From positions 5,779 to 69,778 of the forward strand of contig CAYQVD010000003.1 in NCBI GenBank assembly GCA_964421125.1: a DNA stretch of 64,000 bases, in the 5' to 3' direction. This document shows positions 617-31,931 of this stretch, in pieces; within the stretch, counting starts at the first letter, position 1, and each line of letters begins with the position of its first letter. Under the pieces are notes generated by a model. That model was given only the letters and a program-made list of their open reading frames with translations. It did no database searches and had not been told where the DNA came from. Source of the DNA: an uncultured Bdellovibrionales bacterium (GTDB lineage Bacteria > Patescibacteriota > Minisyncoccia > Moranbacterales > DUUL01). A program made the translations under genes and the position numbers.

Positions 617-944
617 TTTGTAATTTGTTAATTTGGTAAAAAAGTTAGTTTTTTAAAATATTCATTTATGTAAGTAATCTATTACTTACATAGCAATCGG
701 ATTAATGGATTTCTGTCGGAGTTTATGTTCGTGGATGCGGGTGCAGGAATGACAAAGAGAGAGATTTTGAATAATATATTTTTGAGTGTCAGGTCATTCT
801 GATGAGATTTTGGGAGAAAATATGTTATTCAAAATCTTTTTTAGAATGACAAGGGCAGATTAATTGTTTATATAAAAATACAACATACTGTATTTTAGTA
901 ATGTATTATTATGTTATTTAAATTGCTCTACTAACTATCAACTA

Positions 945-975
945 AAATCTATTAACTAAACAATTTGCTCAAATA
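945..975 (+). promoter_or_regulatory. Putative sigma70 promoter (TTGCTC ... TGtGATAAT, extended -10) upstream of the response regulator gene
   Basis: Direct reading of the sequence; hexamer spacing is approximately right. Confidence 0.3.
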
Positions 976-1107
976 AAAAAAGTGTGATAATATGGTGAGT
1001 AAATAAGGGTTTTTTATGCTTAATAATAGCGTGATTAAATACAAGCTTTCTTTATTATTAATAAGTTTGATTTTGCCTGAAATCGCAATTTCAAATATAA
1101 ATAAAAA

Positions 1108-1980
1108 ATGAATAAAATTCTCATCGTCGAAGATGATCCGATGTTATCTGAGATATATCAAAAAAAGTTTTCGCAAGAAGGAAATTTTGAAGTTTTGACA
1201 GCGATTTCAGGTAGTGAAGCTGAGAAGAAAATAAGAAGGGAAAAACCTGATTTAGTGTTATTGGATTTGGTGTTACCAGAAAAGGATGGATTCGAAATTT
1301 TGAAAGATCTTAGAGAAGATTCTAGTCTTGATGATATTAAAATTGTTATTTTTTCAAATCTTTCTCAAGAAGAGGAACAACAAAAAGCTAAGACTCTTGG
1401 GGCGAATGGTTTTATCGCTAAATCTGATTTTACTCCTCAACAAATTGTTTCTGAAGTTAATAAAATTATTGGAGAAGATGATAATAGTCAGAAAAAAACA
1501 GATTCAGAAAAGATGATACAGGAAGACAAAGGGGGAGAAGAAAATAAGGCGGTTAAGGGAAGAAAAACAGTTAAAAATAGTAATATTGCTGTTGATTTAG
1601 GATTTACTCCTAAGATTTTAATCGTTGAAGATGAAGAAGTTTTTTTGGAAGTTTTTGGAATAAAATTAAAAGATTCTGGATTTGAAGTGGATACTGCTTC
1701 GAATGGTGGATGGGGATTGAAACTTGCGGATAAAAATAAATATGATGCAATTTTATTGGATATTGTGATGCCAGTTTTGAATGGCGTTGATTTAATTAAG
1801 AAGCTTCGCAAAAAAGGTGAAAACAAGGAAACACCAGTGATTATTTTATCTGGATCGATTGATGAGCAATCACAAAGAGATGAAGTCTTGAAGGCTGGAG
1901 CAGTTGACGTGTTGATAAAAACTCGTGTAACTCCGAGTCAAGTAGTTGATTGTGTTAAAAGTCATATCAAGAAGCAATAG
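1108..1980 (+). CDS. Response regulator with two CheY-like receiver (REC) domains and no output domain
   Basis: Two copies of the ILIVEDD...LLD...P REC signature (residues 1-120 and ~170-290), separated by a K/E-rich linker. Confidence 0.75.
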   Translation: MNKILIVEDDPMLSEIYQKKFSQEGNFEVLTAISGSEAEKKIRREKPDLVLLDLVLPEKDGFEILKDLREDSSLDDIKIVIFSNLSQEEEQQKAKTLGANGFIAKSDFTPQQIVSEVNKIIGEDDNSQKKTDSEKMIQEDKGGEENKAVKGRKTVKNSNIAVDLGFTPKILIVEDEEVFLEVFGIKLKDSGFEVDTASNGGWGLKLADKNKYDAILLDIVMPVLNGVDLIKKLRKKGENKETPVIILSGSIDEQSQRDEVLKAGAVDVLIKTRVTPSQVVDCVKSHIKKQ

Positions 1981-2061
1981 TGATGTTAAAAGTAGCTTCA
2001 AGGAGCTCCAAATAATACTGGGGAATGGATATTGATTGTTTCTAATAAAAAATGATTTAAA

Positions 2062-2781
2062 ATGTTGCAAGAATATAAAATAAAAACAGAACAATTTGAG
2101 GGACCACTTGATTTGTTGTTGGAATTGATTGAGAAAGAAAAGCTTGATATTACAAGATTGTCTATTGCGACAGTGGCAGATGATTTTTTGAAGTTTATTG
2201 AAAATAATACTGAAATTAATTTGGCAAATTTAAGTGAATTTTTATTGACTGCTTCGCAGTTAATTTTAATTAAATCGAAAGCTCTTTTGCCGCTTTTTGA
2301 ATTTACTCAAGAAGAGGAAGAAGAAATCGTTGATTTAGAAGAGAGGCTTTTGGAGTACAAGAGATTTAAGGATGCTTCTAGTAAGGTTGGAGAATTATTT
2401 TGTTCTTCAATGAAATGTTTTTCCAGAAAAGAAGAAAAAGATATTGATTTCAAGAAGTTTGTTGATCCGAAAATGAACGGAAAAAATTTATTAAATTTAT
2501 ATAAAAGAGTTATTATTAATATTCCTCAAGAGGAAAAAATGATTGAAAGAGTAATGGAAAAGGTTGTAAGTCTTGAAGATAAAATGGTTGAATTGAAAAC
2601 TTCATTAGAAAAGAGGATGAAAGTGGCTTTTGCAGATACAATTAAGAATGCGACTGGGAAGGTTGATGTGATAGTTACTTTTTTGGCGATGCTTGAAATG
2701 GTCAAACAGCGATCTATAGCAGTTGAACAAGCGGATTTATTTGGTGATATTTTATTAACATCAAGAAAACATGTTGAATAA
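2062..2781 (+). CDS. scpA: Segregation and condensation protein A (ScpA kleisin)
   Basis: N-terminal FEGPLDLLLELIEKEKLDITRLSIATVADDF is typical of ScpA; scpB lies immediately downstream. Confidence 0.8.
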   Translation: MLQEYKIKTEQFEGPLDLLLELIEKEKLDITRLSIATVADDFLKFIENNTEINLANLSEFLLTASQLILIKSKALLPLFEFTQEEEEEIVDLEERLLEYKRFKDASSKVGELFCSSMKCFSRKEEKDIDFKKFVDPKMNGKNLLNLYKRVIINIPQEEKMIERVMEKVVSLEDKMVELKTSLEKRMKVAFADTIKNATGKVDVIVTFLAMLEMVKQRSIAVEQADLFGDILLTSRKHVE

Positions 2782-3325
2782 AAATATAAAAGGAGAAATT
2801 GAAGCAATTTTATTTGCCACCGGAGATTCAGTAGAGATTTCTAAAATTGCAAAGTTTTTTAAGATTTCAAAAGAGAGTGTAAAAAAAGAAATAATGAATC
2901 TTGAAAATGATTATTTATCTAAAAAATCTGGATTAATTATTGTGACAAAAGGAAATCGAGTGCAACTTTCAAGTGAGCCTAACTTTGGTGAAGTGGTTAT
3001 GAAGTTTATGAATAAGGAGGTTGGAGAGGCACTTTCGCCAGCTACCTCAGAGGTATTGGCAGTGGTTGCTTACAGAGGACCTCTTACTCGAGCTCAAATT
3101 GAATATATTCGGGGAGTGAATTGTAGTTTTACCTTAAGAAATTTGGCGATGAGAGGATTGGTCGAAAGAAAAGAGAATCCAGATGATTCTCGTTCATATT
3201 TATATGAAATAAGTTTTGATTTTTTAAATAGTCTTGGAATTAAAAAAATTCAAGATTTACCTGAATATGAAGAATTAACTAAAAAACAAGAAGAAACAAT
3301 AAATGAAATCAAGAACGAAACTTAA
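2771..3325 (+). CDS. scpB: Segregation and condensation protein B (ScpB)
   Basis: GEIEAILFATGDSVEISKIAKFF... is a winged-helix ScpB N-terminus; 4-nt overlap with scpA. Confidence 0.75.
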   Translation: MLNKNIKGEIEAILFATGDSVEISKIAKFFKISKESVKKEIMNLENDYLSKKSGLIIVTKGNRVQLSSEPNFGEVVMKFMNKEVGEALSPATSEVLAVVAYRGPLTRAQIEYIRGVNCSFTLRNLAMRGLVERKENPDDSRSYLYEISFDFLNSLGIKKIQDLPEYEELTKKQEETINEIKNET

Positions 3326-4397
3326 TATCGTGGGAATTATTTTTTCCGGAATAGTTTTATGGACTGGTTATTCTATCTATGCTTATTTTACTAATGATAA
3401 AAATGGAGAATTGGCAGTTAATTCAACAAGCCAGATAATTAGAGTTGATAACCAGAGTATTAGTGTTATGGGTGATTCTAATGATAATCAGAATGATGAA
3501 AAAGAAGATGATGAAAATTTTTGTTCTGATGGGATAGTCTCTGGTGAATTATTTAAGGATAATCCCGATGCACCAATAAAAGATTTAGAATACGGTAATC
3601 ATTATGTTGGTGCCCGTTCTGCTATTGCGATTGATGCTGAAACACATACAATTCTTTTCGATCAAAATGCTACAAAGAAAATGGCAATTGCTTCTTTGAC
3701 AAAAATGATGACAGCCGTTTTAGTTGTGGAGAATATTGATGATTTGAGAAATGAGATTGTTACTATTGATGAAGAAACTATTTATACCGATGGGACAATC
3801 ATTGGTTGTCCACGAAGCGGTTATTGTATTTCAAACAGATTAAGAATTGGTGAGAAAATATCTGTATTAAGTCTTTTGGAAGCAATGATAATGAATAGCA
3901 CTAATGATGCTGCTGTTGCCTTAGCTCGACATATTGCTGGAAGCGAGAAAGAGTTTGCGAAAATGATGAACGAAAAAGCCGAAGATCTTGGTTTGGAGGA
4001 TACTCATTTTTGTAATCCATCTGGACTTGATGAAGACAATAATCCAGGGGGGTGCTATTCTACTGCATATGACTTGGCTCGAATTTCTGCTTATTCATTG
4101 CAATATGATACAATTTGGAAGATAATGAGAATGGAGCCAAAGGATATCTATTCAGCGGATGGTCAAATTGTTCATCATATAGTAAATACAGATCGTTTAA
4201 TTGATCAAATGCCAAATTGCATTGGAGGGAAAACTGGATTTACCTATGAAGCAGGAAAGTCTTTGATGACAGCGGCTTATCATCCATATGATAAAGATAA
4301 GAAAGTTATAGCGGTTATTCTGGATGATAATTATAGATGGGTTGATATGAAAGATTTAATGACTTGGGTTTTTAGCGCGTATAATTGGCCTAAATAA
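3303..4397 (+). CDS. D-alanyl-D-alanine carboxypeptidase (peptidase S11, PBP5/6-like)
   Basis: N-terminal TM helix; SxxK (ASLTKMM), SxN (NSTND) and KTG (GGKTGFT) active-site motifs. Confidence 0.7.
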   Translation: MKSRTKLNIVGIIFSGIVLWTGYSIYAYFTNDKNGELAVNSTSQIIRVDNQSISVMGDSNDNQNDEKEDDENFCSDGIVSGELFKDNPDAPIKDLEYGNHYVGARSAIAIDAETHTILFDQNATKKMAIASLTKMMTAVLVVENIDDLRNEIVTIDEETIYTDGTIIGCPRSGYCISNRLRIGEKISVLSLLEAMIMNSTNDAAVALARHIAGSEKEFAKMMNEKAEDLGLEDTHFCNPSGLDEDNNPGGCYSTAYDLARISAYSLQYDTIWKIMRMEPKDIYSADGQIVHHIVNTDRLIDQMPNCIGGKTGFTYEAGKSLMTAAYHPYDKDKKVIAVILDDNYRWVDMKDLMTWVFSAYNWPK

Positions 4398-4403
4398 ATA
4401 AAA

Positions 4404-5510
4404 ATGATTATTGAAGTAGCCCAAATACAAACTATTCCAGAGGTTCTTGCCATGGCTAAGATAGTTATTTTGTCAGTTTTGGCTTTTGTTTTAGCAATGG
4501 GGCTCACACCTTTGCTGGCTTATTTTTTGTATAAATATAAAATAGGAATTCGAATAAAAGATAAAGATGTTGATGGGGAGAAGCTTTCCCATGTTAGTAA
4601 AATGCATGCTCATAAAAGTGGGACTCCAACAATGGGAGGGATTCTTATTTGGGGAACTGTTTTAATTTTGATTATAGTTATGCATTTTTTAGCTCCATTT
4701 TTTTCGGAATGGACTCAAAATGTTTGGATAAGTCGTTTAGATTTTTTAAGTAGAAGTCAAACATGGCTTCCTCTTTTTGCTTTGATTTCAGTTGCCATCC
4801 TTGGGATGGTTGATGACTTTATGAGTATTAGAAATGTTGGTGGGAACAAGGGAGGCGGGATGAGATTTTTCTGGAGATTAATTTGGATTATCGTGATCAC
4901 AGCCTTTGGTGCTTGGTGGTTTTATTCCAAGCTTGGCTGGGACACTATTCACATTCCAGCAGTGGGAGATTTTGAAATAGGACTTTTCTATATCCCACTT
5001 TTCATGTTTGTGATTATTGCATCTGCTTTTTCTTCAAATGAAACTGATGGTCTGGATGGGCTAAATGCAGGAATTCTTGCTCAAGCTTTCGCAGTGTTTT
5101 CTTTAATTTCATTTTTTCAAGGGAGAATGGATTTAGCAGCTTTTTGTGGAGTTATTGCTGGAGTATTGATGGCATTTTTGTGGTTTAATTTTTATCCAGC
5201 TAGATTTTTCATGGGAGATACTGGAGCATTTTCGTTAGGAGCAACTTTGGGTGTAGTGGCGCTTTTAACTAACTCGGTGATCGTATTGCCTTTTATTGTT
5301 ATAATTTATGTAATTGAATCATCCTCCGTTGTCGTTCAATTGACTTCTAAGAAAGTTTTTAAGAAAAAAGTATTTTTAGCTGCTCCAATTCATCATCATT
5401 TTGAAGCAAGAGGTTGGCCGGAAACAAAAGTTACGGTGAGATTTTGGATTATTAATATAGCAGTGGCAATAATTGGCTTGTTAATTGGAATTATTGGTAG
5501 TGGGTTTTAA
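4404..5510 (+). CDS. mraY: Phospho-N-acetylmuramoyl-pentapeptide transferase MraY
   Basis: Polytopic membrane protein with MraY motifs: MGGILIW, DDFMSI, NETDGLDGL, APIHHHFE. Confidence 0.9.
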   Translation: MIIEVAQIQTIPEVLAMAKIVILSVLAFVLAMGLTPLLAYFLYKYKIGIRIKDKDVDGEKLSHVSKMHAHKSGTPTMGGILIWGTVLILIIVMHFLAPFFSEWTQNVWISRLDFLSRSQTWLPLFALISVAILGMVDDFMSIRNVGGNKGGGMRFFWRLIWIIVITAFGAWWFYSKLGWDTIHIPAVGDFEIGLFYIPLFMFVIIASAFSSNETDGLDGLNAGILAQAFAVFSLISFFQGRMDLAAFCGVIAGVLMAFLWFNFYPARFFMGDTGAFSLGATLGVVALLTNSVIVLPFIVIIYVIESSSVVVQLTSKKVFKKKVFLAAPIHHHFEARGWPETKVTVRFWIINIAVAIIGLLIGIIGSGF

Positions 5511-5529
5511 TCTTTATTTATTTTAAATT

Positions 5530-6474
5530 ATGAAATCAAGAGAAAAGAAAATATCTATTGTTGTTCCTGTTTTTAATGAAGAAGGGAGTATTGCTAAGTT
5601 GCATCAGGAAATTAAAATTACTTTCAAAAATAATAATTTAGATGGAGAAATTATTTTTGTTGACGATGGAAGTTCAGATAGAACTGTGGAAGAATTTAAA
5701 AAACTTTCTCCTATTAAGATTGTGATTTTTCGAAAAAACTTTGGTCAAACGGCGGCAATGGATGCAGGAATAAAATCGGCAACTGGTGAAATTATTGTGA
5801 CAATGGATGGAGATGGTCAGAATGATCCAGCTGATATTCCTCAATTACTTGATAAATTAGATGAAGGATTTGATGTGGTTTCTGGTTGGAGAAAGAATCG
5901 AAAGGATCCATGGTCAAAGAAATTTTTATCTCGAGGAGCCGATAAGTTAAGAAGATATTTGATTAATGATCAAATTAATGACAGTGGTTGTAGTCTTAAG
6001 GTATATAAAAAAGAGTGCTTTGAAGATGTTGATCTTTATGGGGAAATGCATCGATTTATTCCTGCAATTTTGAAAATTCAAGGATTTAAAATTGGGGAAG
6101 CTGTCGTGAATCATCGACCTCGAATAAGCGGAAATACAAAATATAATTATAAGCGTTTATTTAAAGGATTTCTTGATGCAATTAGTGTTTGGTTTTGGGG
6201 AAAATTTTCAGCACGTCCGCTTCATCTTTTTGGCGGACTTGGATTTTTTTCTGGAATAGTTGGTATCATAATTTTAATTTGGATGGCCATCGATCGAATT
6301 TTCTTTGGGATTCCATTGGAAAGTAGGATTTGGCCAATGATTGGTATCTTTATGATATTAATTGGAATTCAGCTTTTCATTTCAGGGCTTTTGGCGGATA
6401 TCTCTATAAAAACATATCATCAATCTCGTAACGAAACTCATTATAAGATAAAGGAGCGAATTGAAAATAGTTAA
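5530..6474 (+). CDS. GT2 glycosyltransferase (polyprenyl-phosphate sugar transferase, GtrB/DPM1-like) with two C-terminal TM helices
   Basis: ISIVVPVFNEEGSI, FVDDGSSD and DGDGQNDP are GT2 motifs; hydrophobic C-terminus. Confidence 0.75.
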   Translation: MKSREKKISIVVPVFNEEGSIAKLHQEIKITFKNNNLDGEIIFVDDGSSDRTVEEFKKLSPIKIVIFRKNFGQTAAMDAGIKSATGEIIVTMDGDGQNDPADIPQLLDKLDEGFDVVSGWRKNRKDPWSKKFLSRGADKLRRYLINDQINDSGCSLKVYKKECFEDVDLYGEMHRFIPAILKIQGFKIGEAVVNHRPRISGNTKYNYKRLFKGFLDAISVWFWGKFSARPLHLFGGLGFFSGIVGIIILIWMAIDRIFFGIPLESRIWPMIGIFMILIGIQLFISGLLADISIKTYHQSRNETHYKIKERIENS

Positions 6475-6514
6475 TGGATTATTGGCTGTTGAAACAGTTG
6501 TTTTTTGGCTTTAA

Positions 6515-6946
6515 ATGGTTTATAATAAGTATGTAAAAAATAAAAAAATGCAATATAGATCCTTACTTTGGATACTGCGATTCATTGCTTTAATAGCCTT
6601 TTTTGGGGTTCTTTATTTTGTTTTTTATTTATCTCCATATGTGAGTCAAATTTCATTTGATTTGATTACTTGGAATATTGTAGTTTTTGAAATAATTCTC
6701 CTTATTTTTCTTTCGGCAATTTTTTCTATTCTTCTATTTTGGATTAGAAGAATCGGGAGGAAGGGATTAGTGAAGAATGAAAAGATGCTTTTTATGGGAA
6801 TAATTTCGATTAGACAAGGAATTCTTTTGGGATTTTGTGCGATAATTTTGTTAGTATTGCAGAGTTTTAATATTTTAACTTGGTGGGATGGATTATTGGC
6901 AGTTGGGGCGATATTAATGCTAGAACTATATTTTTTAGTTAAGTAG
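6515..6946 (+). CDS. Hypothetical small integral membrane protein
   Basis: Four predicted TM segments; no recognisable family. Confidence 0.3.
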   Translation: MVYNKYVKNKKMQYRSLLWILRFIALIAFFGVLYFVFYLSPYVSQISFDLITWNIVVFEIILLIFLSAIFSILLFWIRRIGRKGLVKNEKMLFMGIISIRQGILLGFCAIILLVLQSFNILTWWDGLLAVGAILMLELYFLVK

Positions 6947-6995
6947 TAGTTTGTGTAAAATAATTTAAATTTAATAAAAATAATTAATTCAAGTT

Positions 6996-9020: not shown

Positions 9021-9177
9021 TTGAAAATTAACTATCTGGCGCACTTCGTTGTTAAAATCTGCGCTTTTCACTCGTCGTATAATTAATACGACTCGTTCAA
9101 TGCTCGATTTTGCCTAGAAGTGCACTCAGATATTTAATTTTCATATCTTTAAATTTAATAATTAAAAATAAATAAAA

Positions 9178-10191: not shown

Positions 10192-10196
10192 TTTAA

Positions 10197-10967: not shown

Positions 10968-11002
10968 AACAGCTAAGACAATAAGAAGCATAAAAAATAT
11001 TT

Positions 11003-12412: not shown

Positions 12413-12648
12413 TTACTTAACACTTTTTGCATTGAAAATGGCGGGAATATAGTAGTATATTTTTTTGAAGCATCATCAGGAGAAAAGGTGTCTTGGAATG
12501 TAATTAATATATCTTCTCGCAACGCCATCGGAATGGCGAAATCCTCGAAGATACATTAATTACATTCCAAGATGAAAGAAGTTTTGAGACACTCAAAATT
12601 ATATCAGCTATATTTTTAAAAGTGTGAGATTATAAATAAGTTTAAAAA

Positions 12649-13218: not shown

Positions 13219-13222
13219 CTTT

Positions 13223-15903: not shown

Positions 15904-16054
15904 CTTCTGGTAACATAAATTTTGAAAAAAATAAACTCGAGTATGAATTTTGTTGCTGAAAATCTCACCCATATTCAACACCACCTTGGTCGATTTTCAG
16001 ACAAAATTCAAACTCTCAAACATAATTTTTTGTCAAAATTTATGTTACCAGAAG
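15904..16054. repeat. Perfect 21-bp inverted repeats (cttctggtaacataaattttg / caaaatttatgttaccagaag) flanking a 109-bp AT-rich core; MITE-like element or long hairpin
   Basis: The two arms are exact reverse complements; read directly from the sequence. Confidence 0.6.
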
Positions 16055-19075: not shown

Positions 19076-19138
19076 TAATAATAAAAATAAAAAAGTAATA
19101 GTTTTGAATTTTGAACTTTATTTTAAGCAAAAATTTAT

Positions 19139-20296: not shown

Positions 20297-20328
20297 GTAA
20301 TTTGTGAATTTGTAATTTGGATAAAAAA

Positions 20329-20366
20329 ACAAGCCAATCACGGTGTTCTGTGATGGCTTGTTTTTT
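20329..20366. terminator. Rho-independent terminator between convergent genes (stem aagccaatcac/gtgatggctt + T-run)
   Basis: GC-rich hairpin followed by TTTTTT. Confidence 0.6.
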
Positions 20367-20393
20367 GGTTTGGTGGTAATTCAAAAAAATGAT

Positions 20394-21143: not shown

Positions 21144-21242
21144 GAGAATCTCTCCTTCTCTTTTTTAGTTTAAGTTTTTAAGGTTACTTCATTTAGAAAA
21201 ATAATTTTATCATAAAAACAGTGAAATGTCAAGCGGTGGGGC

Positions 21243-21270
21243 TTGACAAATTTTGTGGGTATGCTATAAA
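21243..21270 (+). promoter_or_regulatory. Strong sigma70-type promoter P1: GGGGC-TTGACA-16-TGcTATAAA (extended -10)
   Basis: Consensus -35, extended -10 and 16-bp spacer. The same GGGGCTTGACAA box recurs at 39554 and in related form at 59869. Confidence 0.6.
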
Positions 21271-21288
21271 GATACTTAAAGTTATTTG

Positions 21289-21504
21289 AAAAATTTTGTT
21301 GTTCCGGGTCGAAGTCTGCGTCATTTCAGGAAAGGTTTTTCCTGAGGCGTTGGATTTACTCGGTTTTAATGGGCGCTTGAGTTGGGAATTTCCCGTTGCC
21401 TGAACTGGACTATTCCCGTTGTTGGTTTCATTGGGAACCTCGGGATATGTATCCACATCGGCGTTTTATGGGATTTTCCTGACTCAAGTTTTTTGGTAAG
21501 TGAA
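21289..21504 (+). ncRNA. Candidate structured non-coding RNA or cis-regulatory leader immediately downstream of P1
   Basis: GC content far above the local background and no ORF. Contains hairpins caggaaaGGTTtttcctg and ggatatgtatcc, a long-range stem cttgagt(21376)/actcaag(21492), and a closing U-run. Confidence 0.35.
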
Positions 21505-21964
21505 TTTTTTAACGAAGGAGGAATGTTTTATGAGTGTTTTTAAAAAAACCATCATAGGAACGGGAGAAAAAAATTATTTTTAAATGATAACCCGGCGGCG
21601 ACCCATGATCGCGGTGGTGGCAGTGGATCCAATCTTATTATTATAAAATAGATTCTGGAATCCGGCCGACGCGCCTGTGATTTGGCCGCGACATAATAAC
21701 TTCAAGGATTGTTAATTTTTGAGAACTTTCACTGTCGCTGGCAAACTCAATGTTTTTGTGACGGAGATAAGAATGAGGTGAATTTAATTTCAGAGTTTGA
21801 TTCATAAATTTTTATTGTCGAAGTCGCAAAAGCAATCAATACCACTGAATATTATTCAGGGGAACTCATTTTAAAAAAGAAAAACCTTTACTGCATTTAA
21901 TTTTGTAGTAAAGGTTTTTATTTTAAATTGATATTTTAATAACATTTAAAGGAAAGGAGAGCGA

Positions 21965-22135
21965 ATGAAGAAAATATCTGGTGTTAATAATGCTGAGGAA
22001 GAGAGAACTATTGATATTGGAATAACAGTTGAAACCAAGGTGCCAGGACTTATTCCTCCTGAGCATGTAAACAGGGTTGGATTTATGATCGTAGGGTTTT
22101 TTCGAGCTTGCACCTTGGGTCTTAAGGACAGGTAA
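21965..22135 (+). CDS. Small ORF (56 aa, MKKISGVNNAEEERTIDIGITVETKVPGLIPPEHVNRVGFMIVGFFRACTLGLKDR) with SD aaaggagag; below the ORF-track size cutoff
   Basis: Good RBS spacing; followed directly by a perfect terminator. Function unknown. Confidence 0.35.
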   Translation: MKKISGVNNAEEERTIDIGITVETKVPGLIPPEHVNRVGFMIVGFFRACTLGLKDR

Positions 22136-22150
22136 AAAAATAAACGAACA

Positions 22151-22190
22151 CCCGGAAGCTCAGTGAAGCTTCCGGGAGTTTTTTTATTTT
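22151..22190 (+). terminator. Rho-independent terminator (cccggaagct-cagtga-agcttccggg + TTTTTTTATTTT)
   Basis: Perfect 10-bp GC-rich stem with a U-tract. Confidence 0.8.
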
Positions 22191-22420
22191 AAAAGGAGAT
22201 ATGCTTATTTTATAGAAGATGCGTCATGGGGATTTTTCTAAAAAATAAAGTAAAACAGGAGTAAAAGTTCAAGTTTAGAATGCACCACTTTTAAATATTT
22301 CATTAGGAGTTGAATATTTCTTTTTAAGTCTTTGTTTTGTTTAAAACAAGGGTTTTAAAAGGGAAGGGTTCCCTTATTATATTTATTCTTTGAAAATTTT
22401 TTGGAAAGGGAGAATTTAAG

Positions 22421-23098: not shown

Positions 23099-23260
23099 TA
23101 ATTTTTTATCAATCAGTTTCAAAACTAATAATCGTTTTACTCATAATAGGTAAAGCGGTTATTTTTTTACAATAAATATTTTTTAAGAAGTTTTTTTGTT
23201 TTAAACGGTGTTTATGATATAATCAACGCAGAACTAAATAATCAAACAATAATAAAAAGC

Positions 23261-24388: not shown

Positions 24389-24407
24389 TTTGAGGATAAG
24401 AGGTTGA

Positions 24408-24477
24408 ACTGTAGGTGATACGTTTTCTCGCAAAACTTCATAGGAATGTCATACTGCTCGAAAATGTATCACCTACA
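24408..24477 (+). repeat. Family B structured repeat, copy B3 (perfect 19-bp terminal inverted repeats ctgtaggtgatacgttttc / gaaaatgtatcacctacag around the conserved core TTTTCTCGCAA...CTCGAAAAT)
   Basis: See the family B finding; other copies at 763-846 (reverse orientation), 12470-12587, 26790-26924 and 31811-31894. Confidence 0.6.
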
Positions 24478-24590
24478 GTTCACTAAGTTTTTAATAAACA
24501 TGGAATAATACCAATGGATTTTCGCTGGAGTTTATCTGATTTGGGCGGGCAGGAATAATAAGAGTATTTCTGATATAATAAAGTAATAAA

Positions 24591-24623
24591 ACTAATGGAT
24601 TCCTGCCTTTGCAGGAATGACAG
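24591..24623 (+). repeat. Family A hairpin repeat, copy A3 (ctaATGGATTCCTGC-cttt-GCAGGAATGACAgg); a degenerate copy A2 lies at 24511-24562
   Basis: See the family A finding; other copies at 666-757, 31096-31161, 36966-36998, 37137-37170, 44880-44946, 52184-52214 and 59795-59858. Confidence 0.6.
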
Positions 24624-24633
24624 GGGTGATTTT

Positions 24634-25566
24634 ATGAAAGAATTAGGTTTAAGGGAGAAAATGTATCCAGCTTCTTGGAAGCAACTAAAAAAAGGCGCTC
24701 AGAATGAGAAAATTGTCCATGCTTTTTTGTTTTGCGGACCAGGATTTACTGGTAAAAATGACATGGCACTTGATTTAGTAGCTGTTCTTAATGGTATTGA
24801 CGTTGAGGCAAATCGGGATAAGGTTTTGAATAATGGATTTCCTGATATTGTAATTATTCGACCTGATGAAGAGATGAAGAAAAAAGAAATTGGAGTTGAT
24901 CAAATTAAGGATGTAATTAAGAAGATTGGATATTATGCCTATGATCAGAAATACAAAGTATTAATTGTTTTTAATGCTGATTTGATGAACAAGTCAGCTG
25001 GAAATAGCCTTCTGAAAACTCTTGAAGAGCCACCAGAAAAAACTATTATTATTCTTATTGCTAATCGAGAGGAGCGAATTTTAACAACTATTCGGTCTCG
25101 ATGTCAGAGAGTTTACTTTGGTCTTAAGAGAAATGAAGAAGTGAAAAATTATCTTAAAGAAAATGAAAGAATTGATTTGCCAGAGGGGTCACTGAATCAA
25201 ATTGTAGAAATTTCTCATGGGAAATATAAGTTAGCAGAGAACTTAGCATTGAGTCCAGATCTATTGGATGAAAAAAGGGAGCGAATTGAAAAGTTTCGAA
25301 AAGCTCTTAAGGGTGGAATCTCGGAGACTTTTGATTTCATTGAACAAGAAACAAAAGATGGAAAGGTTGATAGTGAGGTGCTTGAAGATTGGCTTTATTT
25401 TCTTCATGCTTTTATTAAGGAAAGCATTAAGGAGGATCGGCCGGCTCAAATGGTTGAGAAAGTTTTTGAGATGGAAAAGAGTTTAATAGAAGTTAAAAAT
25501 AAGATAGAAAATAGCAATGCTAGTCCAAGAACTTTGTTAGAGAATTATTTTGTGCAGTTAATTTGA
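24634..25566 (+). CDS. holB: DNA polymerase III delta-prime subunit (start moved to the ATG at 24634; the longer ORF would translate the family A hairpin)
   Basis: AAA+ Walker A-like FLFCGPGFTGKNDMALD and clamp-loader SRC-like LLKTLEEPPEKTIIILIA...TIRSRCQ. Confidence 0.75.
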   Translation: MKELGLREKMYPASWKQLKKGAQNEKIVHAFLFCGPGFTGKNDMALDLVAVLNGIDVEANRDKVLNNGFPDIVIIRPDEEMKKKEIGVDQIKDVIKKIGYYAYDQKYKVLIVFNADLMNKSAGNSLLKTLEEPPEKTIIILIANREERILTTIRSRCQRVYFGLKRNEEVKNYLKENERIDLPEGSLNQIVEISHGKYKLAENLALSPDLLDEKRERIEKFRKALKGGISETFDFIEQETKDGKVDSEVLEDWLYFLHAFIKESIKEDRPAQMVEKVFEMEKSLIEVKNKIENSNASPRTLLENYFVQLI

Positions 25567-25585
25567 TAGAGTATAAAAACAAAAA

Positions 25586-26746
25586 ATGAAAACTTTTTTT
25601 TCATATTTAATAAAATTTTTATTATTTTTGTTGGTGCTTGTTTGTATTGGAGGAGTTCTTTTCCTTGGAAGAGGATTCTATTTAAAAGAAAAAAATACTG
25701 ATATTAAAATTTCAGTTGAAGGAAGATATACAGAAGAACTGATGGTTTCTAAGGGAGATGCTTTGGTAATTCAATTTTCTGGGTCAGTTTTGCAAGAAAG
25801 CGTTGAACAAAATTTTGAATTTAATGATAATTTGAAAATAGAAACAGATTGGAGAGGAAGGAGATATTTCCGAATTGAAATTGATGAATATCCAGCTCCA
25901 GGAGAAAAGTATTATATATCAATAAAAAATATTAGAACAAAATGGTATATTCCATTAGAAAAGCAGGTTGACTTCTATTTTTCTGCGGTTACTGCACCTG
26001 AGATTGAAGAAATTGAACCAAGGAATGAACAAGGTGATGTGGATTACAATTCATCGATTAAGATTGATTTTAATGGGAGAATGGGAGAGGAATATTTTTT
26101 AGAATTTAAGAGTGAGCCAAAAATTAGTTTTGATTATACGATAGCTAATGATAGGTCGAGTCTTGAAATTACTCCGCTAGAAGATTTTCAGAAAAATACT
26201 AAATATAATATTGATATTGCTGTTCGACATCGTGCTTTCGATGATTTTGAAAAAGAGATTTATAGTGGGTTTTTTGTGACACAAAGACCTCCGGAAATTG
26301 TATATAATTTTGATAAGAATGGAGATTCATTGAAAACCGAAGAGAGAGAAGAAAATATTGAGCCTCAGATATTAGAAGGGCGATATATTGATATCGATAT
26401 TTCATCTCAGGCACTTTTTATTTTTGAGAATGGTTTTGAAAAAGGAGCTTTCAAAGTTTCAACTGGGATTCGTGGGATGGATACACCGATTGGAACATTT
26501 GAAGTAATGGGGAAATCAACAAGACCGTGGTCGCAAAAATATTCTTTGTATATGCCATGGTTTATTCAATTCACAAGAGAAGGGCATGGAATTCATGAGT
26601 TGCCTGAATGGCCAGGAGGAGTGAAAGAGGGAACTCATCATCTTGGAATTCCAGTTTCTCATGGTTGTGTGAGACTAGGGGTTGGCCCAGCAAAAGTTGT
26701 TTATGATTTTGTTGAGAATGGAACTCCTGTTGTGATTCATAGGTAA
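25586..26746 (+). CDS. L,D-transpeptidase (YkuD domain) with an N-terminal TM anchor
   Basis: C-terminal catalytic signature GTHHLGIPVSHGCVRL (His/Cys dyad). Confidence 0.75.
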   Translation: MKTFFSYLIKFLLFLLVLVCIGGVLFLGRGFYLKEKNTDIKISVEGRYTEELMVSKGDALVIQFSGSVLQESVEQNFEFNDNLKIETDWRGRRYFRIEIDEYPAPGEKYYISIKNIRTKWYIPLEKQVDFYFSAVTAPEIEEIEPRNEQGDVDYNSSIKIDFNGRMGEEYFLEFKSEPKISFDYTIANDRSSLEITPLEDFQKNTKYNIDIAVRHRAFDDFEKEIYSGFFVTQRPPEIVYNFDKNGDSLKTEEREENIEPQILEGRYIDIDISSQALFIFENGFEKGAFKVSTGIRGMDTPIGTFEVMGKSTRPWSQKYSLYMPWFIQFTREGHGIHELPEWPGGVKEGTHHLGIPVSHGCVRLGVGPAKVVYDFVENGTPVVIHR

Positions 26747-26949
26747 TGTGAATTTTCAGTTCTTAATTTTCAATTAAGACTAAGATATAGATAACATATT
26801 TTCTCGCAACGCCATCAGAATGGCCTGCCTCGACGGCAAGGCGGGCGAGATCCTCGAAAATACATTCGTTATATTCTAAAATGAAAGAAGTTTTAAGGGT
26901 CTCGAAAATGTATTATTCAAAATTTTATGGTTTTAAATAATGAAATTTT

Positions 26950-29697
26950 ATGAAAGATAAGAAACAGAAGGAAACTTTAGTGTTGTTGGACTCGAATGCT
27001 TTGATTCATCGTGCGTTTCATGCATTGCCACCACTTACAAACAAGGAAGGTCAATTGACGAATGCTGTTTATGGTTATGCGCTGACTCTCTTTAGTGTTT
27101 TGGAGAAAGTGAAGCCGGAATATATTGTGGCGACTTTTGATTTGAAAGGTCCAACTTTTCGACATGAGCAATATAAGGAATATAAGGCGACAAGAAAAAA
27201 AGCTCCAGATGAACTCTATGCACAGATTCCTCTCGTGAAGGAAATGCTTCAAGCTTTTAGTATTCCTATTTATGAGAAAAAGGGTTTTGAGGCTGACGAT
27301 GTTATTGGAACAATTGTTAGAGATAAAAATATAAATGGTGAAATAGAAAAAATGATTGTGACAGGGGATATGGATGCATTGCAACTTGTTGATGAAAACA
27401 CAAAAGTTTTTACGCTTCGAAAGGGAATCACTGATACGGTTATTTATGATATTGACCGAGTGAGGGATCGATATAATCTTTCCCCTCTTCAGATTATTGA
27501 TTATAAATCTTTAAAGGGTGATGTTTCTGATAATATCCCTGGAGTTAAGGGAGTTGGTGATAAGACTGCGACTGATTTATTGCTTGAATATGAAACACTG
27601 GATGGGATTTATGAAAATCTTGATAAAATTAAAGAAACGGTCAAAAAGAAACTTGAAGTGGATAAAGAAAATGCTTTCATGAGTTATAAATTGGCTACAA
27701 TCAACACTGAGGTACTAATTGATTTTAGTCTTAATGAATGTGAGGCAAAGGATTATGATAAGGAGAAATTGGTCAACTTTTTGAGAAAAATGGGATTTCA
27801 CACACTAATTAGTAGGCATTTTCCTGATTTTCAGGCAAGTGAGGATGATTTGGGAGTAAAAAAGGCTACTGAAATGTCAGAGGTGGATGTAATTAAGGAT
27901 GAAAAGGCATTTTCAAATGTTTCGAAACTTTTAGAAAGGGCTGATAAAATAAGCATTTATGGACTTGGAAGTGATGAAAATTGCTATATTTCAGAATTAT
28001 TGGGTATTGGATTAGCGATATTTAAAAAGAAGAAAATAAAGCTCTTTTTTGTTGAAAGTGGGCTTATTGAAAATTTATTGAAATTCTTGAAAGATGAGAA
28101 AGTTGAAATTGTTGGATATGACATGAAAAAAGACTTTCAATTGCTTAAAAAAGCCTTCCCAGAAGGAGTTTTCGGAAAGTTTGGCAAAATATTTGATGTG
28201 CAAATTGCGGTCTATTTATTGAGTTCTGGGGCAGGTAATGAGATTGAAAAGCTTGTGATGGAAGAGTTTGGCCAAAATTTAAAGCATAAAACCACTAAAA
28301 ATGGACAAGCAAGCTTTTTGGATGATAATTCAGAGAATAAGAAAAAAGAGACGGCCGAAATAGCTGGTTGGTCAATGGTGCTAGCTGAAATATATTCAAA
28401 GAAACTTCAGGAAATTGAAAAGAGCCAAGAGAAAGAGAATTCTTCAGTTGGCGAAGGAGACAAGAAAAATATTTTAGGAATTTTTGAGTTACTTGAACTT
28501 CCCCTCGTGAAAATTTTAGCTGATATGGAAATGTCAGGTATGCAAGTGGATAAAAATGTTTTGAAAAATGTTTCCGATCTAGCTCAGAAAGAAATTGGAA
28601 AACTTGAGAAAAATATTCATGAAATGGCTGGAGAAAATTTTAATATTAACTCCCCAGGTCAATTGGCAAATATTCTTTATGAAAAATTGAAGATTTCAAC
28701 TATTGGAATTAAAAAAGGGAAAACTGGATTTTCAACTAATGCAGAACAACTTAAAAAACTTTTTGAGCTTCATCCGATTATTCCTGAAGTTGAAAGTTAT
28801 CGAGAACTTTTTAAATTGAAAAGTACCTATGCAGATGCTTTGCCAAAATTGATTACAGAAGATGGAAGAATTCATGCCAAATTTAATCAGGCTGTCACAG
28901 CTACTGGAAGACTTTCTTCTTCTGATCCAAATCTTCAAAATATTCCAAAGCGAGGTTCTTTAGCGAAAGAAATTCGAAAAGCTTTTGTGGCGGAAGAAGG
29001 AAAAGTTTTGTTGGCACTCGATTATTCTCAGATTGACTTGAGAGCAGCAGCTCATCTTTCCAATGACAAAAAAATGATTGAAATTTTTCAAAAGGGGCGA
29101 GATATTCATCGATCCACTTCAGCTTGGGTTAATAAAGTTGACGAAGAAAAAGTGACGCCAGAACAGAGAAGTGAAGCGAAGTCTTTGAATTTTGGAGTGC
29201 TTTATGGGATGGGAATTTATGGCTTTATGCGAGACAGTGGAGTTTCGAGAGATCGAGCAAGTTTTTTTATCGAAAAATACATGGAGACTTTTTCAGGCCT
29301 TAAAGACTATCTTGAAAAAACTAAAGAATTTGCTCGAAAATTTGGATATGTTGAAACAGAATTAGGAAGAAGACGTTATATTCCAAATATCAATAATTCA
29401 AATCACATGGTGAAAAATGCAGCAGAACGGGTGGCAATTAATCTCCCGGTTCAAGGACTTTCTGCTGACATCATGAAGTTGGCGATGATCAAAGTTGATG
29501 AAGCAATTTCAGAGGGGCTTGCTAAAAAAGAAATTGCTTTGGTTTTGCAGGTGCACGATGAATTGATTTTTGAAGTGGATAAAAAGAAAGCGGACGAATA
29601 TGAAAAGAAAATTAAAGAAGTGATGGAGGGTGTTTATGAATTGAAAGTTCCGCTTGTAGTGGAAAGTTCAATAGCAGGGAATTGGAGTGAGATTTGA
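26950..29697 (+). CDS. polA: DNA polymerase I
   Basis: 5-prime nuclease domain (GDMDALQL, Hhh); degenerate 3-5 exo region (no DxE); polymerase motif A (LLALDYSQIDLR), motif B (RRSEAKSLNFGVLYG) and motif C (VLQVHDELIFE); TGA stop. Confidence 0.9.
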   Translation: MKDKKQKETLVLLDSNALIHRAFHALPPLTNKEGQLTNAVYGYALTLFSVLEKVKPEYIVATFDLKGPTFRHEQYKEYKATRKKAPDELYAQIPLVKEMLQAFSIPIYEKKGFEADDVIGTIVRDKNINGEIEKMIVTGDMDALQLVDENTKVFTLRKGITDTVIYDIDRVRDRYNLSPLQIIDYKSLKGDVSDNIPGVKGVGDKTATDLLLEYETLDGIYENLDKIKETVKKKLEVDKENAFMSYKLATINTEVLIDFSLNECEAKDYDKEKLVNFLRKMGFHTLISRHFPDFQASEDDLGVKKATEMSEVDVIKDEKAFSNVSKLLERADKISIYGLGSDENCYISELLGIGLAIFKKKKIKLFFVESGLIENLLKFLKDEKVEIVGYDMKKDFQLLKKAFPEGVFGKFGKIFDVQIAVYLLSSGAGNEIEKLVMEEFGQNLKHKTTKNGQASFLDDNSENKKKETAEIAGWSMVLAEIYSKKLQEIEKSQEKENSSVGEGDKKNILGIFELLELPLVKILADMEMSGMQVDKNVLKNVSDLAQKEIGKLEKNIHEMAGENFNINSPGQLANILYEKLKISTIGIKKGKTGFSTNAEQLKKLFELHPIIPEVESYRELFKLKSTYADALPKLITEDGRIHAKFNQAVTATGRLSSSDPNLQNIPKRGSLAKEIRKAFVAEEGKVLLALDYSQIDLRAAAHLSNDKKMIEIFQKGRDIHRSTSAWVNKVDEEKVTPEQRSEAKSLNFGVLYGMGIYGFMRDSGVSRDRASFFIEKYMETFSGLKDYLEKTKEFARKFGYVETELGRRRYIPNINNSNHMVKNAAERVAINLPVQGLSADIMKLAMIKVDEAISEGLAKKEIALVLQVHDELIFEVDKKKADEYEKKIKEVMEGVYELKVPLVVESSIAGNWSEI

Positions 29698-29764
29698 TTT
29701 AGTTTTTTTGGGGGTAGAATTTCTTGTAATTAGTAATTTGTGAATAGGTACTTTAGATAGAAAA

Positions 29765-29803
29765 GAAAAAAGCCAGTCGCGTTTTAGCGATTGGCTTTTT
29801 TTG
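29765..29803. terminator. Bidirectional Rho-independent terminator (aagccagtcgc / gcgattggctt, A-run 5-prime and T-run 3-prime)
   Basis: Hairpin between convergent polA (+) and the 29831..30889 (-) gene. Confidence 0.7.
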
Positions 29804-29830
29804 ATTTTAAATTGATGATAATATTATATT

Positions 29831-30889
29831 TTAGCTTTCTAAAATAAATCTAGTCGGGATTGGTTCGTCTAAAGATTTTTTATAGTCAGATGCATTTTGG
29901 TTTTTCATTTTATATTTTCTTGGAAAAAAATGAATATTTGGGAATATCAAAGCTCCATATCCAAGAGAAGTATTGAGACTGGCGTTTGCAGGAAATTTCT
30001 TTTTCCAATAAGAGTGCTGATTTTTTTCATGCATTCCTGCTACTGTAAGACCGTTTGCCGTTATAATTTTTGGTATGTCAAAGCTCCATGTAGTCATATT
30101 ACCTTGTTGTTTTCTAGTAAAATGTTTTAATGTTTCTTTTGTATTACAAGGAAATATGAATATTGGATAAAGATTAAAAACGTCAAGATAACATAATTCA
30201 TTGATAATTCTTAATCTTCTTCCTTTTAAATTTCTAAAATTAAAATTTTCAAGAAGAGGAAACTGTTCTAAAAGCTCCTTTTGATATGTTATTGTAATAG
30301 ACCAGCCTTCACAGGATGCGCTTCTAAGAACTTTTTTAGTATTATCTTTTAATAATGGAAAAAAATTAAATAATTTAGCAGTTAAATTAGATGAATGGTA
30401 TGGAAAATTTTTCAATTCACTATAATAAGGATTTAATTTTGCATACCTGTACATTTCGTAACGATGAATTCCTATTAACCAATTAATTAACGTTAAGGTT
30501 TTCTCTGGAAAAGGCATAACAAGAGTGTACGGAACAGTTTCTTCTATGGGAAAAATTTCTCCTGGCAAAAGAAAACTTGAGTTTCTTAATGCTTCTTCTA
30601 AGAGTTCTGTAGCGTAACTCCAGCCATCTCTTATAAATTTAGCAAGAAGATTTCCCATAACTTTTCTTTCGGCTGTTAGGGAGTCCCATTTTGCACAAAA
30701 ATTAGATGGGTTCTTTGAATTTTTTACTACATTAATAGGATTTAGATAAATTGATCCACGACAAGCCTTGAAAGCTTTATTGCCAGCCAATTTTTCTGTT
30801 AAAAATTTTAGCTGTTCTTCATTGCTTGGTACATTTTTTTCTCCAGGCATTTGCTTTTCCATAGTTAATTTCTCCTTTTCAAAAGCCAT
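29831..30889 (-). CDS. Hypothetical protein (352 aa, aromatic-rich, no TM helix); isolated minus-strand gene with its own operator
   Basis: Long ORF with SD (aaaggagaaatt) and terminator; no recognisable motifs. Confidence 0.45.
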   Translation of the reverse strand: MAFEKEKLTMEKQMPGEKNVPSNEEQLKFLTEKLAGNKAFKACRGSIYLNPINVVKNSKNPSNFCAKWDSLTAERKVMGNLLAKFIRDGWSYATELLEEALRNSSFLLPGEIFPIEETVPYTLVMPFPEKTLTLINWLIGIHRYEMYRYAKLNPYYSELKNFPYHSSNLTAKLFNFFPLLKDNTKKVLRSASCEGWSITITYQKELLEQFPLLENFNFRNLKGRRLRIINELCYLDVFNLYPIFIFPCNTKETLKHFTRKQQGNMTTWSFDIPKIITANGLTVAGMHEKNQHSYWKKKFPANASLNTSLGYGALIFPNIHFFPRKYKMKNQNASDYKKSLDEPIPTRFILES

Positions 30890-30926
30890 CTGAAGCAGTA
30901 CCCTTTGGGGGATACCATGTTAATTG

Positions 30927-30953
30927 TTGATTATCAGACCATCTGATAATCAA
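30927..30953. promoter_or_regulatory. Perfect 12-3-12 palindrome TTGATTATCAGA-cca-TCTGATAATCAA, 38 bp upstream of the start of the minus-strand gene; candidate repressor operator
   Basis: Exact dyad symmetry; resembles GATAAT-type (Fur-like) half-sites. Confidence 0.5.
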
Positions 30954-31253
30954 GTATCTCCTGGGAGACATTTTTTTTCAATGTACTAATTGGTAGTTTA
31001 TTATATAATTGTATTTTAGTCAAAAAGATTTTAATGACGGGAAAGATGATTTGTGGTAAAATGTTTATGTAAAGTGTTGTAAGAATAGTATTAAGACTAA
31101 TGGATTCCTGCTTTGCGCTATTGCTAAAGCTAGGGCGACACACGGTCGTGGGAATGACAAGAATAAGAAACGGGTTTGGTATATTTATAATTTTGAAAAT
31201 TAATTAATTGGAAATTCAATGGAAATTGTGAATTAAAAATTGAAAATTTAACA

Positions 31254-31808
31254 ATGAAAATAATTGTAGGGACAAAAAATCAAAGTAAGGTGGATGCTGT
31301 TACAGAAACACTGAGAGAGTATGAAATGTTTTCTGGAGCGGAACTTAATTTTGTTTCAGTTGAATCAGGAGTTTCGGATCAACCGAAGACATTTGAGGAA
31401 TCAGTTCGAGGAGCAAAAAATCGAGCGCAAAATGCCTTTTCTTCAAAATCTGGTTGTGATTACTCTATTGGAATTGAATCAGGTCTTTTCGAAATTCCAT
31501 TGTCAGATGGGACTTTGGCTGATCTTTGTGTTTGTGTGATTTTTAATGGGGAAGATTTTTCTTATGGATTTTCCTGTGGATTTGAATTGCCAAATAATAT
31601 TTCTGACTTAATGGTAAATGACGATTTGGATATGACTCAAGCTTCAAATGAAGCAGGTTTGAGTAAAAATCCGAAACTTGGTGCTGCAGAAGGGTTGATT
31701 GGAATTTTAACGAAAGGAAGAATTAAAAGAAAAGATTACACAAAGCAAGCAATTATGACCGCGTTGATTAAATTGGAGAATAAAGAGATTTATAATTCAT
31801 CATGCTAG
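31254..31808 (+). CDS. Inosine/xanthosine triphosphatase, YjjX-like (Maf/Ham1 superfamily)
   Basis: KIIVGTKNQSKVDAV...VESGVSDQPKTFEESVRGAKNRAQNA parallels E. coli YjjX ([26 protein letters not shown]). Confidence 0.65.
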   Translation: MKIIVGTKNQSKVDAVTETLREYEMFSGAELNFVSVESGVSDQPKTFEESVRGAKNRAQNAFSSKSGCDYSIGIESGLFEIPLSDGTLADLCVCVIFNGEDFSYGFSCGFELPNNISDLMVNDDLDMTQASNEAGLSKNPKLGAAEGLIGILTKGRIKRKDYTKQAIMTALIKLENKEIYNSSC

Positions 31809-31931
31809 AAGATTTTGAATAATATGTTTTCTCCCAAAATCCCATCGGAATGGCCTGACACTCGAAAATATATTATTCAAAATCTTTGGAAACTTTTATT
31901 TAAATATCTAGGTTAGTAATTAATCAAAAAT

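Follow-up and report, generated by a model that had tools for sequence, protein, structure and literature searches.

A probable palindromic DNA repeat family with a conserved tip and covarying arms in the intergenic spacers of a Moranbacteria-like genome

The 64-kb window analysed here (the whole 64,000-nt stretch of contig CAYQVD010000003.1) carries several copies of a hairpin-forming sequence, Family B, and this locus raises the question of what kind of unit keeps a conserved tip on arms that vary from copy to copy. An earlier note on this DNA had proposed either a Correia- or REP-like miniature element or a structured RNA class. We favour, with moderate confidence, a form of the first answer: Family B would be a palindromic DNA repeat, non-coding, non-autonomous and specific to its lineage, which spread across the intergenic spacers of one Moranbacteria-like genome. 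The earlier proposal stands in the broad sense of a selfish palindromic repeat, but neither as a Correia-type MITE (miniature inverted-repeat transposable element) nor as a REP sequence with the features that define REPs. The category is an ordinary one (REP-, ERIC- or MITE-like); what is unusual is that the tip is conserved and the arms covary, the inverse of the MITE pattern.

The Family B unit and its copies

The Family B unit is 78-102 bp long and contains no open reading frame (ORF). A stem of 23-30 bp is capped by a conserved asymmetric core of ~30 nt, in which a 5' junction TTCTC-S-CAA is followed by the mini-hairpin CCAT-NRGA-ATGG, by a segment of 7-8 nt that is subtype-specific (GARATC, CTGACA or similar), and by the 3' junction CTCGAA. 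The mini-hairpin, which the earlier note had recognised as an inner hairpin, is present in all copies. Mean pairwise identity is 77% in the core, 85-89% in the inner 9 bp of the arms and 53-55% in their outer 17 bp. Variable arms around a conserved core had thus been described correctly, but the arms are not copy-specific: across 28 copies they can be aligned in register at every column (consensus e.g. CAAYTRAGAYRTAGATAAYATATTTTC) and fall into about three subfamilies (GATTTTGAATAA, CAAYTRAGAYRTAGATAA and TTTTGGAATACAGCTAA), which are joined with at least three core subtypes in more than one combination. Nor are they always perfectly complementary, as had been claimed, since most copies have a conserved A.C mismatch 7-8 bp from the core. 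GC-rich inserts occur at one fixed position of the core. The 22-nt insert of window copy 4 is identical in L012:504 (~555-576), and L014:4750 carries at ~4800-4852 a 53-nt insert made up of the 22-nt version and a further palindrome (TCGGATCGATCCGA with flanks) after TCGAC; these inserts give the impression that a GC-rich mini-hairpin has grown by nesting within an otherwise AT-rich genome.

A covariance model built from 20 Family B copies and run on the window with filters off recovered five full copies and no more; they all lie within the first 32 kb and have E-values of 6e-18 to 3e-10, the remaining hits being noise. These are the five copies of the earlier note, each at or near the place it had been given. 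Together with two orphan 3' half-copies they make up the Family B content of the window, and all are intergenic. The exact core pattern matched the window 3 times, compared with 0 matches in each of 100 shuffles, and the half-site patterns gave 9 matches where ~0.8 were expected and 5 where ~0.9 were expected. Each window copy folds as one long hairpin, with z-scores of -3.3 to -8.6 against shuffled sequence. The features are as follows.

758..841, minus strand: copy 1, full; found by the model at 753-846(-) with 79.3 bits; arms of class GATTTTGAATAA with a core of subtype CCCAAAATCTCATCAGAATGACCTGACA; alone among the window copies in having the reverse orientation; folding energy -16.9 kcal/mol for the model strand, -31.6 kcal/mol for its complement.
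12491..12572, plus strand: copy 2, full; model hit of 97.9 bits; inverted repeat I18; one A.C mismatch in a stem of 26 bp; core CGCAACGCCATCGGAATGGCGAAATCC; folding energy -39.8 kcal/mol (z -7.3).
12587..12616, plus strand: orphan 3' half-copy (GACACTCAAAAT and 3' arm), ~15 nt downstream of copy 2; half-site match 12592-12606; 84-nt direct repeat D5 in common with 26844-26927.
24405..24482, plus strand: copy 3, full; model hit of 79.7 bits; inverted repeat I19; arms CTGTAGGTGATAC, divergent core CGCAAAACTTCATAGGAATGTCATACTG; fold -40.3 kcal/mol, z -8.6.
26780..26881, plus strand: copy 4, full but degenerate; model hit of 61 bits; 16 of 26 stem pairs Watson-Crick.
26825..26846, plus strand: GC-rich hairpin insert of 22 nt (CTGCCTCGACGGCAAGGCGGGC) in the core of copy 4; an insertion column block of the alignment.
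26897..26926, plus strand: orphan 3' half-copy (GGGTCTCGAAAAT and 3' arm of the GATTTTGAATAA class), downstream of copy 4; half-site match 26901-26915; direct repeats D13 and D5.
31809..31886, plus strand: copy 5, full; model hit of 87.2 bits; fold -28.1 kcal/mol, z -6.4.

The two orphan halves downstream of copies 2 and 4 explain the copy at 26790-26924 that had been called composite, which is a full copy with a 22-nt core insert followed by an orphan 3' half-copy. The copies at 763-846 and 31811-31894, earlier described as near-identical in opposite orientation, are indeed 92% complementary over 77 nt. Copy 5 starts directly after the stop codon of an NTPase gene, 45 nt upstream of fpg, and its sequence is the same in the independent assemblies L001 and L022.

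Outside the window, the core pattern gave only two matches in 185,579 species genomes, both chance matches in high-GC metagenome-assembled genomes (MAGs) without arms. It gave one chance match and no real copy in a viral contig collection, and a blastn search with one copy found no match among phage records. In JGI metagenomes the pattern occurred at 18 loci, 8 of them by chance; the ten real ones lay on seven contigs (~110 kb), all from a single metagenome, Ga0307992, on which the covariance model found 23-24 full copies more, often as adjacent pairs 100-300 nt apart. The Ga0307992 contigs match the window in G+C and in tetranucleotide usage (r 0.96-0.99) and carry housekeeping genes other than those of the window; judged by composition, they probably belong to the same or a very closely related organism. 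Family B has a density of about one copy per 13-19 kb. Two outcomes had been named that would speak against a dispersed element, namely that copies are absent elsewhere or are fragments of one larger insertion sequence (IS) with identical ends, and neither was found. A search of the literature on palindromic repeats or MITEs in Patescibacteria returned nothing relevant. The Ga0307992 contigs also carry another family of long AT-rich palindromes (TCACAAGACTGATGATTTTTT / AAAAAATTATTAGTCTTGTGA), which have no Family B core and lie next to Family B copies (L018 3440-3520, L010 3425-3470 and L020 7300-7350).

Covariation, strand and the structured-RNA alternative

Stem pairs and covariation were counted on the 28-copy alignment. 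Compensatory changes were frequent, with 20 of the 26 outer-stem pairs altered on both sides, and 88% of stem cells were paired, compared with 75% after shuffling and 35-45% when the partner was slid out of register. None of the covariation measures was reached in 500 shuffles. The self-complementarity of the stem is therefore maintained even in the fast-evolving distal part, although this covariation is expected alike for an RNA helix and for a DNA hairpin or cruciform and cannot distinguish between them.

The mismatches of the stem are unevenly distributed between the strands. On the model strand, transition-type mismatches (A.C) occupy three fixed columns, in 8, 13 and 19 of the 28 copies respectively. 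Because these mismatches become G.U or G.T on the opposite strand, that strand folds better in 27/28 copies and forms an uninterrupted helix of 26-28 bp. A comparison of G.U with A.C by strand gave 64:16 within the stem, driven by the three columns; outside them, sporadic mismatches numbered 29 A.C against 24 G.U, with no strand bias. As the mismatch types are balanced outside the three columns, we regard the asymmetry as inherited and as no more than suggestive. In the inner hairpin, wobble pairs favour the strand opposite to that favoured by the outer stem.

These features invite the second answer of the earlier note, structured RNAs of one class whose closing helix varies. Such RNAs would be small RNAs or cis-acting elements of mRNAs, their conserved apical core would bind a protein or form a tertiary motif, and the copies would be functional genes or elements. 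The compensatory changes are what such an RNA would show, as are the invariant nucleotides of loop and junctions, and the extra hairpin at one fixed core position would make a three-way junction. The long G.U-containing helix of the opposite strand would resemble an RNase III substrate, and all copies are intergenic, often within operon-like strings such as gatCAB. Against this reading, the opposed wobble preferences of inner hairpin and outer stem leave no coherent RNA strand, and many copies are decayed, chimeric or partial. A promoter and terminator scan of the copies gave counts equal to the shuffled expectation and no site common to them, and no Rfam family overlapped any copy at gathering thresholds or at E<5. 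The position of the copies relative to genes, described below, also counts against it: copies occur in both orientations to the flanking genes, with the better-folding strand antisense to genes in most of them, the flanking genes are functionally unrelated, and the copies are not kept at orthologous sites of three relatives, where a neighbouring hairpin, Family A, is kept. On balance we regard a structured RNA as an unlikely explanation, albeit one with which the strong covariation is compatible.

Self-cleaving ribozymes (hammerhead, twister, pistol, hatchet) were rejected, as no Rfam hit overlapped any copy. The earlier note had already judged a hammerhead unlikely, and we agree: CUGAUGA is confined to copies with the CAGA loop, on which ground a box C/D assignment was dropped as well.

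Placement, orientation and the search for a mobilising system

The window has 33% G+C and a strong positive GC skew (~+0.3), its ORFs lie on the plus strand almost throughout, and its housekeeping genes include comEC, murD, holB, polA, fpg, a gene for an L,D-transpeptidase and those for the Leu-, Asp- and His-tRNA synthetases. Its PolA is 100% identical to a protein of an 87.7-kb contig present in several public sources, and 77-80% identical to that of the next relatives (80/79/77% in L023/L024/L026). Because more distant PolA relatives, at 48-56% identity, are labelled Patescibacteria or Moranbacteria, the host is an uncultivated bacterium of the candidate phyla radiation (CPR).

All 29 copies for which gene context was scored are intergenic (29/29), and their neighbours are unrelated housekeeping genes (murD, polA, fpg, gatC/gatA, S15, pth, dprA); some copies lie within the gatC-gatA gene string itself. 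The relatives L023, L024 and L026 are syntenic with the window, at ~75-84% nucleotide identity in the flanking genes (~78%), and have no Family B copy in the GT-holB, ykuD-polA and NTPase-fpg spacers or elsewhere in 29 kb. Their spacers are shorter by roughly the length of a Family B unit: the spacer orthologous to that of copy 3 is empty in L023 and L024, that of copy 4 is empty in L023, L024 and L026, and at the site of copy 5 L024 has other sequence. In the same spacers the Family A hairpin and AT-rich TTTCAATT motifs are conserved. Two signs of mobility had been proposed as a check, empty sites in related strains and target-site duplications; sites lacking Family B were found in these three relatives, which are different species, and consistent duplications were not found. 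The flanks of 18 well-delimited hairpins gave no consistent duplication, with a match of 2-3 nt in 4 of them.

Orientation was compared with the direction of both transcription and replication. Relative to flanking genes, 17 copies have the same and 10 the opposite orientation. For replication, the leading strand of each contig was assigned from GC skew, calibrated in the window (+0.31 for co-directional genes, +0.07 for head-on genes and +0.21 for non-coding sequence). Of the copies, 24 had the model strand on the G-rich strand, which has the leading-strand sequence, and 4 had it on the other; 1 was ambiguous. When adjacent copies were collapsed the ratio was 18:4 (binomial p ~0.004), and on contig Ga0307992_1000060 it was 12:1, even across stretches with genes on the other strand. 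As far as GC skew can tell, replication direction predicts orientation better than transcription does, though the two are confounded. Selection against the more stable hairpin on the lagging-strand template would be an alternative route, also at the DNA level, to such a bias.

Family B copies also bear marks of recombination and decay. Cores and arms have been reassorted between copies, and L019 and window copy 4 are chimeras with arms from different subfamilies. Half-copies, one core-deleted copy and clusters occur; adjacent or nested copies were seen at 7 loci, and the composite of a full copy, a linker and a 3' half recurs in the window and among the Ga0307992 copies. Two ways of producing the arms were considered and rejected. 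The core was not inserted into pre-existing host palindromes, as the arms are homologous in register across copies; core-less palindromes were not found, except for one copy that resembles an internal deletion. Fold-back regeneration of perfect arms at each transposition was set aside, as the same stem mismatches are inherited across subfamilies.

A gene for a mobilising enzyme was looked for in the window and in ~110 kb of other contigs, and no transposase or HUH gene tied to Family B was found there. In a batch family scan of 100 ORFs, the result rests on the top 25 families listed. The ORFs between or next to copy clusters were housekeeping genes only, and a RAYT (Y1 HUH transposase) gene was seen neither in the window ORFs examined nor in those flanking clusters.

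We suggest that the propagating unit would be recognised as a folded single strand or cruciform by a trans-acting enzyme, encoded elsewhere in the genome, that reads the conserved tip together with the conserved stem mismatches, so that the remainder of the stem need only pair. The conserved mismatches and the orientation of the copies are the reasons for proposing recognition of structure on a single strand, and such recognition would account for covarying arms, for the lack of target-site duplication and for an orientation bias linked to replication. The logic would be that of HUH/Y1-transposase substrates, such as the ends of IS200/IS605 elements and REP/REPIN sequences with RAYT. Once inserted, copies would probably be near-neutral hairpins inside transcription units, with effects on mRNA processing or stability as secondary consequences.

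Several results weigh against this reading of Family B as a mobile palindromic repeat. No mobilising gene and no consistent target-site duplication were found, as described above, and neither a flanking tetranucleotide nor any other target was conserved among the copies. The empty sites all come from different species (~78% nucleotide identity), in which the spacers are barely alignable. Replication direction was derived from GC skew on few contigs and is confounded with gene direction. The balance of sporadic mismatches outside the three columns shows no preference for a strand, and the covariation, the extra hairpin at a fixed position and the perfect helix on one strand would also be expected of a structured RNA.

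A conventional MITE, that is, an internally deleted relative of a DDE-transposase IS that is moved by way of its terminal inverted repeats and leaves target-site duplications (examples are Correia, RUP and Nezha), would share many of these properties. Family B copies are small (~85-100 bp with inverted-repeat arms), non-coding, intergenic, multi-copy and clustered, and are present or absent between genomes; furthermore, the window holds a seemingly intact IS with perfect 26-nt inverted repeats at 56420-57472. Yet the termini of Family B are its least conserved part (53-55%), where a transposase-bound inverted repeat should be the most conserved. Recognition of a double-stranded inverted repeat needs no compensatory changes in the arms, duplications are not consistently found, and no arm class is related to the inverted repeats (CGGCATATAGACCC...) that bound the window IS. 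We therefore consider a conventional MITE improbable. The IS-like unit at 56420-57472 has terminal inverted repeats CGGCATATAGACCCAAATAGGACCTA and a 317-aa ORF (56496-57449) with only a weak InsA zinc-ribbon hit; it has no relation to Family B and is probably an insertion sequence that was active recently.

It is doubtful that Family B is the substrate of an undescribed mobilisation or processing system of Patescibacteria, in which a protein would read the tip and the fixed mismatches on one strand and the stem could be free to drift, or even to carry information. If true, Family B would be either a transposon end of a new single-strand DNA type or a family of hairpin RNAs that RNase III processes and whose 26-bp duplexes differ from copy to copy; with such RNAs the variable arms would not be neutral but would have a function, be it as guides, decoys or otherwise.

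Other repeats and genes of the window were noted alongside. The Family A hairpin, of the form TAATGGATTCC[YGC-loop-GCRG]GAATGACA, occurs in the window at 700-752, 24523-24560, 24593-24625, ~31100-31114, 36970-36996, 44919-44945 and 52186-52212, often 10-60 nt from Family B copies, and nested loop insertions are seen too. In relatives it lies at L024 7665-7745, the orthologous site just upstream of holB, and at L026 2640-2790, and upstream of polA in L026 it is found in both orientations. Because it is conserved at the L024 site and present in L026, Family A is older and more widespread than Family B. AT-rich clusters of TTTCCAATTT / AATTTTCAAT motifs stand upstream of genes at 26753-26783, 44036-44100, 48533-48563, 49790-49854 and 51995-52059, and inverted at 31186-31248; the cluster upstream of polA is conserved in L023, L024 and L026, and these clusters may be promoter or UP-like elements of the lineage.

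A palindromic insert of 151 bp at 15904-16054, with 28-nt arms that are 96% complementary, separates hisS from a HIT-family gene and is unrelated to Family B; the matching spacer of L024 is ~10 nt long, and the palindrome, too, has the look of an insertion specific to the lineage. A 352-aa ORF on the minority strand (29831-30889, minus strand), without a Pfam match, lies between polA and the NTPase gene. It is absent from L024, where the two genes are 67 nt apart, and is probably an inserted gene. The 1.3 kb at 21144-22420 contain no convincing ORF but have patches rich in GC, at 21300-21450 (49%) and 21600-21750 (45%), and a hairpin that resembles a terminator at 21875-21924, with no Rfam match; the stretch may be a decayed gene or a gene for a non-coding RNA not yet described. 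The leucyl-tRNA synthetase (49069-51990) has a NUDIX hydrolase domain inserted at residues 403-518, next to its editing domain.

CPR/Patescibacteria genomes are small and are usually thought to be poor in repeats. Selfish hairpin elements can evidently flourish in such a streamlined genome, which here holds other hairpin families besides Family B, as Rickettsia palindromic elements (RPEs) do in Rickettsia, and Family B bears on CPR genome biology. A conserved tip, covarying arms, no duplication and an orientation linked to replication point to structural recognition, probably on single-stranded DNA, and this recognition pattern offers a handle for finding the responsible enzyme in an uncultivated lineage; Family B is in this respect a lead to a structure-recognising mobilising enzyme. 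It can also serve as a lineage marker, and it has likely caused breaks in the assembly of these MAGs as well as local rearrangements. For annotation it counsels caution, as strong covariation alone should not be taken to show a regulatory RNA.

Comparison with known systems

RPEs are selfish elements of ~100-150 bp that have proliferated in the small, reduced genome of a host-dependent bacterium, and they are frequently inserted in frame inside protein-coding genes. Family B is like them in being a selfish palindromic repeat in a small genome, and unlike them in that every copy scored is intergenic.

Correia elements have conserved 26-bp terminal inverted repeats, a TA duplication and an internal IHF site or promoters (see also PMC3184786). 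The Correia/NEMIS elements of Neisseria share with Family B a length of ~100-150 bp, inverted repeats and intergenic, co-transcribed positions, and both form long hairpins that are possible RNase III substrates. Family B differs in its variable termini and in having neither a duplication nor a promoter signal.

Family B can also be compared with the units of known guide-RNA or recombination systems (TIGR stem-loop arrays, CRISPR-like arrays and integron attC sites), although we consider it very improbable that it belongs to any of these. The attC core sites R''/R' (RYYYAAC / GTTRRRY) stand at the hairpin base, and attC sites separate gene cassettes downstream of an integrase. In Family B no such boxes were seen at the hairpin base, as judged by eye on the hairpin ends, and the flanking genes are not cassettes, their order being kept in relatives. 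In their favour as a model, attC sites are hairpins that keep their structure while their sequence varies, and they recombine as single strands (PMC3458562). In TIGR arrays, which are known from CPR, the stems that surround the loop are 'variable but consistently palindromic' (PMC12045711); like Family B, they combine variable self-complementary stems with a loop that holds short conserved motifs, in Patescibacteria. TIGR units, however, form regular tandem arrays beside a tas (Nop-domain) gene, in CPR and phages, and their loops contain two variable 8-12 nt spacers between box C/D motifs (PMC12045711). The loop of Family B is conserved rather than spacer-bearing, and its copies are scattered among housekeeping genes, either alone or grouped in small, irregular clusters, with no regular array beside an effector gene.

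IS200/IS605 elements and PATEs have distinct subterminal hairpins at left and right and insert 3' of a fixed tetra- or pentanucleotide, whereas Family B forms one long hairpin and has no conserved flanking tetranucleotide. The lagging-strand template is where IS200/IS605 elements act (PMC3333891), with an orientation bias that puts one strand on that template. The ratio to set beside this trait in Family B is 24:4 (18:4 with clusters collapsed), relative to a direction of replication that is taken from GC skew and confounded with gene direction.

There is also a likeness to REP/BIME/REPIN sequences. These too are high-copy, extragenic hairpin repeats that occur in clusters and lack target-site duplication, and their stems vary in a complementary manner and have conserved mismatches, which the REP enzyme requires. 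In the REP/RAYT system the enzyme binds single-stranded REP, stem mismatches are needed for binding and cleavage, and the bases of the stem differ between REPs yet stay complementary (PMC3333891). In REPIN hairpins compensatory changes are frequent, and insertion takes place next to existing copies (PMC3116915). Both REP/REPIN and Family B point to a single-strand, replication-linked biology. Their forms differ, however. A REP is a GC-rich imperfect palindrome of 30-40 nt with a conserved unpaired 5' GTAG (GTAG/GTGG), neither of which is found in Family B, and a REPIN consists of two conserved REPs around a less conserved spacer, whereas Family B has one AT-rich stem of ~26 bp with a conserved tip and variable distal arms. 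None of the Family B arms is itself a palindrome, and GTAG-like tetramers are seen in some arms only, in the paired, covarying part (GTAG, ATAG, ACAG, GTGG and TTGA in the same columns).

ERIC (enterobacterial repetitive intergenic consensus) is listed as a MITE with inverted repeats and TA flanks (PMC3184786). Like Family B, ERIC/IRU elements (~127 bp) are imperfect palindromes of ~100 bp that lie between genes in transcribed DNA. The central region of ERIC is conserved, and insertions at fixed positions inside the element give rise to variants of different size; compensatory changes preserve the hairpin, and no transposase is known for it. The two have no sequence similarity and live in hosts of different phyla, ERIC-type copies are reported with TA flanks or duplications that Family B does not show, and ERIC is spread across a family of genera whereas Family B is found in one lineage only. 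Thus, while it is not a demonstrable member of any named family, Family B by these analogies probably resembles REP/REPIN and ERIC in the way it works.

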